From the NCBI RefSeq assembly GCF_003334765.1, contig NZ_QOWT01000021.1: a stretch of DNA of 64,000 bases. One strand, given 5' to 3'. Numbering within the stretch: the stretch's first letter is position 1; each line of letters begins with the position of its first letter. Made by a program: the position numbers and the translations under genes. This document shows, piece by piece, positions 45,255 through 45,338 of this stretch. The notes below the pieces were generated by a model. That model had not been told where the DNA came from and made no database searches. It saw nothing but the letters and a program-made list of their open reading frames with translations. This DNA is from Escherichia coli (lineage in GTDB: Bacteria; Pseudomonadota; Gammaproteobacteria; Enterobacterales; Enterobacteriaceae).

Positions 45255-45338
45255 ACACCGTCGCTTAAAGTGACGGCATAATAATAAAAAAATGAAATTC
45301 CTCTTTGACGGGCCAATAGCGATATTGGCCATTTTTTT
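45255..45338 (+). ncRNA. chiX: Hfq-dependent small RNA ChiX (MicM/SroB/RybC)
   Basis: ACACCGTCGCTTAAAGTGACGGCATAATAATAAAAAAATGAAATTCCTCTTTGACGGGCCAATAGCGATATTGGCCATTTTTTT read directly: 5' hairpin, AU-rich single-stranded region, terminator hairpin GGCCAATAGCGATATTGGCC + T7; matches ChiX as I recall it; terminator overlaps the ybaP stop codon. Confidence 0.9.

Follow-up and report, generated by a model that had tools for sequence, protein, structure and literature searches.

The small RNA gene chiX in the ybaK–ybaP spacer of Escherichia coli and its overlap with the ybaP stop codon

The spacer between ybaK and ybaP in Escherichia coli contains an element whose 3' end runs into the ybaP stop codon on the opposite strand. 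What is this element, and does the sequence shared with ybaP reflect anything beyond the close packing of two genes? These questions were addressed in a window of 64 000 nt (contig NZ_QOWT01000021.1 of assembly GCF_003334765.1), the positions of which are used below. ChiX is a textbook small RNA (sRNA), made constitutively and controlled by a decoy RNA instead of by its own promoter.

Identity of the element and its transcript

The element at 45255..45338 on the plus strand is chiX, an annotated and well-studied regulatory sRNA gene of E. coli that was already known; we assign this identification a probability of about 0.98. Comparison of the whole window with Rfam 15 placed the family RF00368 (sroB, which is ChiX) on exactly these 84 nt, at 82.1 bits (gathering score 44). 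The match is full length (model positions 1–83 of 83), and its E-value of 1.8e-10 in the 64-kb window puts it far beyond chance. The window has 0 mismatches over the 4001 nt compared with positions 505500..509500 of E. coli K-12 MG1655 (NC_000913.3; the window-to-genome offset is 461949). The ncRNA chiX (b4585, ‘small regulatory RNA ChiX’), annotated there at 507204..507287, falls on the element and has the identical sequence, ACACCGTCGCTTAAAGTGACGGCATAATAATAAAAAAATGAAATTCCTCTTTGACGGGCCAATAGCGATATTGGCCATTTTTTT.

ChiX was earlier named SroB/sroB, RybC/rybC or MicM/micM. There is no difference between the element and the ChiX of E. coli K-12 and Salmonella represented by RF00368; it is the same gene, as seen in the sequence and position of b4585, the complete covariance-model match, the ybaK–ybaP synteny and the complementarity of the seed to chiP and to the chbBC spacer. 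Every testable defining feature of RF00368/ChiX was found. There is no counter-evidence to the identification, and the caveats are minor.

The locus is almost universal in the species. A segment of 211 nt (45135..45345), consisting of the ybaK–ybaP spacer and a few flanking bases, has a match in 5423 of 5426 complete E. coli genomes, and in 5418 of the 5426 the coverage is at least 80%. Of the 5423 matching records, 5403 have a best match with an identity of 99% or more. The chiX gene of this window is an ordinary, well-characterized sRNA gene, which carries little weight as a discovery and would not surprise a specialist. The features of the locus are collected in table 1.

Table 1. Features of the chiX locus, in window positions except for the last row.
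Feature	Position	Strand	Description and basis
ybaK	44654..45133	-	Cys-tRNA(Pro)/Cys-tRNA(Cys) deacylase; NF007951, RefSeq
Promoter-like site	45220..45248	+	-35 TTGGCA 45220..45225, 17-nt spacer, -10 GACAAT 45243..45248; consensus scan
chiX	45255..45338	+	84-nt Hfq-dependent sRNA; RF00368, RefSeq, Term-seq
5' hairpin, nt 4–22	45258..45276	+	8 pairs, 3-nt loop; fold
A/U-rich single-stranded linker, nt 23–44	45277..45298	+	read from sequence, fold
Seed (target-pairing) region	45299..45312	+	UCCUCUUUGACG nt 45–56, CUCUUUGACGGG nt 47–58
Intrinsic terminator	45311..45338	+	stem-loop 45311..45330, then A, T7 45332..45338; scan and fold
ybaP	45337..46131	-	TraB/GumN family protein, 264 aa; ORF list, translation end ...PQMLR*, RefSeq
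Kosakonia-like ybaP extensions	L036 3976..3992; L069 2421..2437; L086 947..963		chiX-forward coordinates

The 3' end of the transcript has been mapped by others. The Term-seq data of Adams et al. 2021 (supplementary file 1 of PMC7815308) contain three chiX entries, two of which give the dominant 3' end as 507287 (+), which is 45338 in the window, the last T of the run; the read counts in these two entries are 445,279 and 552,306. This end is classed there as primary for chiX and antisense to ybaP (PMC7815308). A chiX deletion and Northern blots were used in the same study (PMC7815308). The 5' end at 45255 is placed by the annotation and by the boundary of the Rfam model.

A Rho termination region has also been reported on the chiX strand at 507468 of NC_000913.3, or 45519 (+) in the window, inside the antisense of ybaP and about 180 nt beyond the ChiX terminator (PMC7815308, supplementary file 2). 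It derives from DirectRNA-seq with and without bicyclomycin and has a Rho score of 3.7; the reads upstream and downstream number 1492 and 22 in untreated cells, and 2100 and 115 with bicyclomycin (PMC7815308). From these reads, the small share of transcription that passes the ChiX terminator seems to be halted by Rho inside antisense ybaP.

The original prediction, obtained from the raw sequence alone, had named chiX in the ybaK–ybaP spacer. Its coordinates, name and neighbouring genes were all exact, and RF00368, the identity with b4585, the flanking genes and the Term-seq end agree with it. Two checks had been proposed: the covariance-model search with the ChiX family returned RF00368 at the same coordinates, and for a discrete plus-strand transcript there is the published Term-seq end at 45338, with which the published Northern data agree. 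The prediction had further described a 5' hairpin, an AU-rich single-stranded stretch and a terminator followed by T7, and the fold and the terminator scan display all three. It had also remarked that such an element is invisible to ORF analysis; PGAP-annotated records indeed show just ybaP under the match.

The Rfam comparison also located other elements in the window. There are three copies of RF02564 (naRNA4/CssrE), of the REP/BIME type of palindromic repeats, at 39498..39575, 46636..46713 and 46737..46814; two copies lie in the ybaQ–copA spacer and score above threshold on both strands. The DnaX programmed-frameshift element is found at 31407..31471 (+) with 96.8 bits, and ffs, the gene of the 4.5S/SRP RNA, at 14507..14603 (+) with 68.1 bits. 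These last two are landmarks that this stretch of the K-12 chromosome would be expected to contain.

RNA anatomy and conservation in Enterobacterales

chiX appears to have its own promoter of the sigma-70 type, TTGGCA-17-GACAAT. The RNA start is the seventh nucleotide after the -10 hexamer, with 6 nt between the end of the site and the start, and the block TTTGAGCGACAAT of this region is nearly invariant across the Enterobacteriaceae rows of our alignment; its function as a promoter is deduced from these sequence features. The promoter and terminator scans gave 2 and 3 sites against 1.7 and 2.0 in shuffled sequences, that is, no enrichment, and they locate the sites without proving them.

The predicted fold of ChiX has a minimum free energy of -24.1 kcal/mol (z = -3.88), and 1 of 200 shuffled sequences folded as well. 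The terminator hairpin GGCCAATAGCGATATTGGCC has eight pairs and a four-nucleotide loop, GCGA, and is followed by ATTTTTTT. The linker between the two hairpins includes AAU AAU AAA AAA (nt 26–37, 45280..45291), which are A-A-N repeats. In the fold of the naked RNA, the A-run of this linker pairs with the U-tail.

Homologues were sought with an exact-pattern scan (AAATTCCTCTTTGACNGGCC) in one genome per species, which found at least 120 loci. The matches listed come from Escherichia, Citrobacter, Enterobacter, Klebsiella, Kluyvera, Serratia, Yersinia, Rahnella, Hafnia, Pantoea, Erwinia, Proteus and other genera. Ten distant loci, from Serratia, Yersinia, Rahnella, Hafnia, Pantoea, Proteus, Buttiauxella, Kosakonia, Phytobacter and Winslowiella, were scored with the covariance model, and all ten reach at least the gathering score of RF00368 (54–83 bits).

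The matches listed provided 110 distinct homologous sequences, which were aligned with MAFFT. The seed block AAATTCCTCTTTGAC is invariant in 110 of 110, but it is also the search pattern. The 5' hairpin is out of register between genera in this alignment, and pairs were counted for the terminator helix alone. In that helix, 99.1% of the cells are paired among these 110 sequences, with compensatory changes in 34 cells, where three pairs are altered on both sides (A-U to G-C and A-U to U-A); no slid register of the helix has more than 51% of its cells paired. When every third of the 110 homologues was folded singly, a 5' hairpin preceded the conserved ATAA linker in 37 of 37, and there are 90 different sequences of this hairpin across the 110 homologues among the matches listed. 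A hairpin that is kept while its sequence is diverse fits a structural RNA, and not a coding sequence.

The position of the gene is also conserved: of the 120 species loci listed, 111 have ybaK upstream of chiX and 117 have ybaP on the other strand, as judged by tblastn. In the window, ybaK is the upstream neighbour of chiX in divergent orientation, and its product scores 329.9 bits against a cut-off of 243 with the NCBIfam equivalog NF007951.

Several loci depart from this picture in one way or another. In Proteus (P. mirabilis, P. cibi and P. columbae), ybaP and ybaK lie side by side on the same strand, a short spacer apart, and an RF00368-positive chiX lies about 1.8 kb upstream of ybaP, outside the ybaP–ybaK spacer; the arrangement ybaK-chiX-ybaP is therefore not universal in Enterobacterales. 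A contig labelled Chryseobacterium sp. 18061 (CACSKA010000001.1) carries a ybaK-chiX-ybaP locus of the Enterobacteriaceae type, with a YbaK 89% identical to that of E. coli, and this assembly is probably contaminated or mislabelled. Another contig, labelled Enterobacter ludwigii (CEFQ01000010.1), has a chiX sequence and spacing of the Pantoea type. In the Yersinia pestis locus (L080), the Yersinia sRNA Ysr224 (RF02770) is found at 1343..1449 (+) with 133.9 bits, about 0.8 kb upstream of the chiX homologue.

Seed pairing, Hfq and target regulation

The seed of ChiX was compared with its published target, chiP (ybfM), and its published decoy, the chbB–chbC spacer, both taken from NC_000913.3. 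Nucleotides 45–56, UCCUCUUUGACG (45299..45310), form 12 contiguous Watson–Crick pairs with CGUCAAAGAGGA in the chiP leader, a site that overlaps the Shine–Dalgarno sequence and ends 8 nt before the AUG. Nucleotides 47–58, CUCUUUGACGGG, likewise form 12 contiguous Watson–Crick pairs with CCCGUCAAAGAG in the chbB–chbC spacer. In the chb duplex there are seven further pairs nearby (UGAAAUU with UUAUUUCAU), and the duplex extends 2 nt into the stem of the ChiX terminator.

Duplex energies computed for the whole sequences are -38.8 kcal/mol for the chiP leader and -38.0 kcal/mol for the chb spacer, and shuffled sequences did as well in 10 of 500 and 13 of 500 cases, respectively. The advantage over shuffles is moderate because the full-length calculation disregards intramolecular structure and over-extends the duplexes; just the 12-bp cores were used.

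ChiX is named in the literature as a class II sRNA that competes with mRNAs for the distal face of Hfq, and that titrates Hfq when overexpressed. The class II Hfq-dependent sRNAs, which include MgrR (Schu et al. 2015, as cited in PMC7987339), share one architecture with ChiX: a U-tail that serves the proximal face, single-stranded A-A-N repeats that serve the distal one, and a seed between them. The seeds, targets and loci of MgrR and other class II sRNAs differ from those of ChiX, and no sequence homology is expected. In the window, the Rho-independent terminator consists of an 8-bp stem followed by U7, suited to the proximal face, and A-A-N or A-R-N repeats occupy nt 26–37 between the 5' hairpin and the seed; the homologues have a conserved linker, ATAA followed by an A-rich stretch. 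The sequence features thus fit class II, while Hfq binding and the face-dependent stability of ChiX are taken from the literature.

The literature also covers the regulation of the targets. ChiX is reported to repress chiP constitutively; induction of chb by chitobiose supplies an mRNA that titrates ChiX and sets off its decay. The pairing with chiP was proved by published compensatory mutations and enhances Rho-dependent termination. A second sponge of ChiX, named ChiZ, comes from the 5' UTR of chiP.

Set against this background, the locus works as follows. chiX is probably transcribed from its own promoter, beginning at 45255, and its 3' end forms at the intrinsic terminator, at 45338. The product acts in trans as an Hfq-dependent class II sRNA, and in the cell the A-run and the U-tail are expected, from the literature, to be held by Hfq. 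The exposed seed pairs with the Shine–Dalgarno region of chiP and blocks the translation of chitoporin; according to published work, this pairing also favours Rho-dependent termination inside chiP. Once the chb operon is induced by chitosugars, the RNA of the chbB–chbC spacer pairs with the seed as a decoy and brings about the decay of ChiX.

The overlap with ybaP

ybaP, which occupies 507286..508080 in NC_000913.3, is convergent with chiX. Its TAA is the complement of 45337..45339, that is, of the last two T of the T-run and the following A. The original prediction that the chiX terminator overlaps the ybaP stop codon was right, and the shared part is 2 nt, these last two T, as in RefSeq (chiX end 507287, ybaP start 507286).

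Of the 120 species loci among the matches listed, 87 have the same 2-nt overlap according to tblastn and in-frame extension, with TTA on the chiX strand beginning one base ahead of the last T of the run; they include 11 of 11 in Serratia, four of five in Yersinia and six of seven in Rahnella, genera whose YbaP is 54–62% identical to the E. coli protein. These 87 loci among the matches listed have 48 different C-terminal octapeptides; their tails start after a conserved LP-x-(M/L)-L motif, vary in length and reach one common TTA end. In most Pantoea, and in Erwinia, Hafnia, Buttiauxella and Rouxiella, the ybaP stop lies 0 to 180 nt further on. Judged from these sequences, the chiX–ybaP arrangement is old and is usually retained. 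The use of the last bases of the ChiX terminator for the ybaP stop, seen in 87 of these 120 species loci among the matches listed, adds a small comparative point to what is known of this sRNA.

The prediction had gone one step further, proposing that termination of the sRNA and formation of the ybaP 3' end share sequence. This part is not supported: on the minus strand the hairpin lacks a U-tract, and the Term-seq list contains no ybaP 3' end. The proposal amounts to a bidirectional intrinsic terminator that ends the transcription of chiX and ybaP alike. Such terminators resemble the chiX hairpin in being a single hairpin between convergent units, abutting one stop codon, and here a palindrome-like stem stands right where two convergent genes meet and is immediately preceded by A7 on the minus-strand RNA. 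However, bidirectional terminators have a U-tract on both strands, whereas in chiX it is found directly 3' of the stem on the plus strand only (ATTTTTTT), and the hairpin falls outside the definition; we rejected it as a candidate. Beyond the stem, the minus strand reads CGUCAAAGAGG (CGUCAAAGAGGAAUUUCA, CGTCAAAGAGG) and not a U-tract; the closest U-run lies at a distance of 18 nt and is predicted to be paired with the A-run. The terminator scan calls nothing on the minus strand here, and the Term-seq supplement (PMC7815308), where a minus-strand 3' end of ybaP was sought, lists none. A bidirectional terminator is accordingly most improbable. Still less credible is that the region encodes a small protein, instead of or besides the RNA. 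The sole support is the presence of two minus-strand ORFs overlapping chiX in the six-frame list (45117..45401, 94 aa, and 45149..45316, 55 aa). One of them would cross both the start of ybaK and the end of ybaP, the reference genome has no CDS annotated here, and conservation is of the RNA type, with compensatory changes in the stem, wholesale replacement of the hairpin, indels that are not multiples of three and an invariant seed. These small ORFs were rejected on this RNA-like pattern among the homologues.

As no intrinsic terminator follows the ybaP stop on the minus strand, ybaP RNA must run some way antisense to chiX, and this leads to a further reading in which the overlap is functional. 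Transcripts of ybaP would pass the stop and run through the antisense of chiX, possibly as a ybaP–ybaK co-transcript, and the expression of ybaP, ybaK and ChiX would be coupled, either by a cis-antisense sponge of ChiX or by collision with the strongly transcribed chiX. If so, read-through RNA of ybaP (or ybaP–ybaK), being fully complementary to ChiX, could sponge it, and strong transcription of chiX could gate the read-through of ybaP into ybaK. The retention of the 2-nt overlap despite divergent YbaP sequences, and the one TTA end reached by tails of unequal length, could be taken in this sense; the adjacent ybaP and ybaK of Proteus, with no chiX between them, are compatible with an ancestral operon. 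A RIL-seq study had to relabel reads of ‘ybaP.EST3UTR’ as ChiX (PMC10954441, methods), which is also of this kind. Retention is, however, expected in any case, since the T-run is constrained and TTTTTTTA automatically yields TAA in one frame. The overlap has been lost with no apparent consequence in Pantoea, Erwinia, Hafnia, Buttiauxella, Rouxiella and Proteus, the available Term-seq data (PMC7815308) list neither a minus-strand ybaP 3' end nor an antisense RNA, and the three papers found to mention both ybaP and ChiX hold no experimental report of cross-talk between them. We regard such coupling as unlikely.

Most simply, the overlap may be read as a passive relic of close packing between convergent genes. 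Termination and Hfq binding limit change in the T-run, and the A that follows it (TTTTTTTA) provides a TAA for a convergent ORF; this neutral reading is drawn from the sequence and its distribution. One practical consequence of the overlap is seen in the treatment of ‘ybaP.EST3UTR’ reads as ChiX (PMC10954441): the shared end of chiX and ybaP makes annotation ambiguous in interactome pipelines.

The antisense of chiX is entered further by ybaP in a few genomes. Three Kosakonia-like genomes have G in place of the A after the T-run, and their ybaP extends 17 nt into the terminator (table 1), with the C-terminus …QKNGQ*. In Phytobacter massiliensis, the ybaP ORF crosses the whole of chiX in antisense (locus L032, 824..910). 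The overlap, these antisense extensions of ybaP and the Proteus layout may be of interest to those who study how sRNA genes settle and evolve in spacers.
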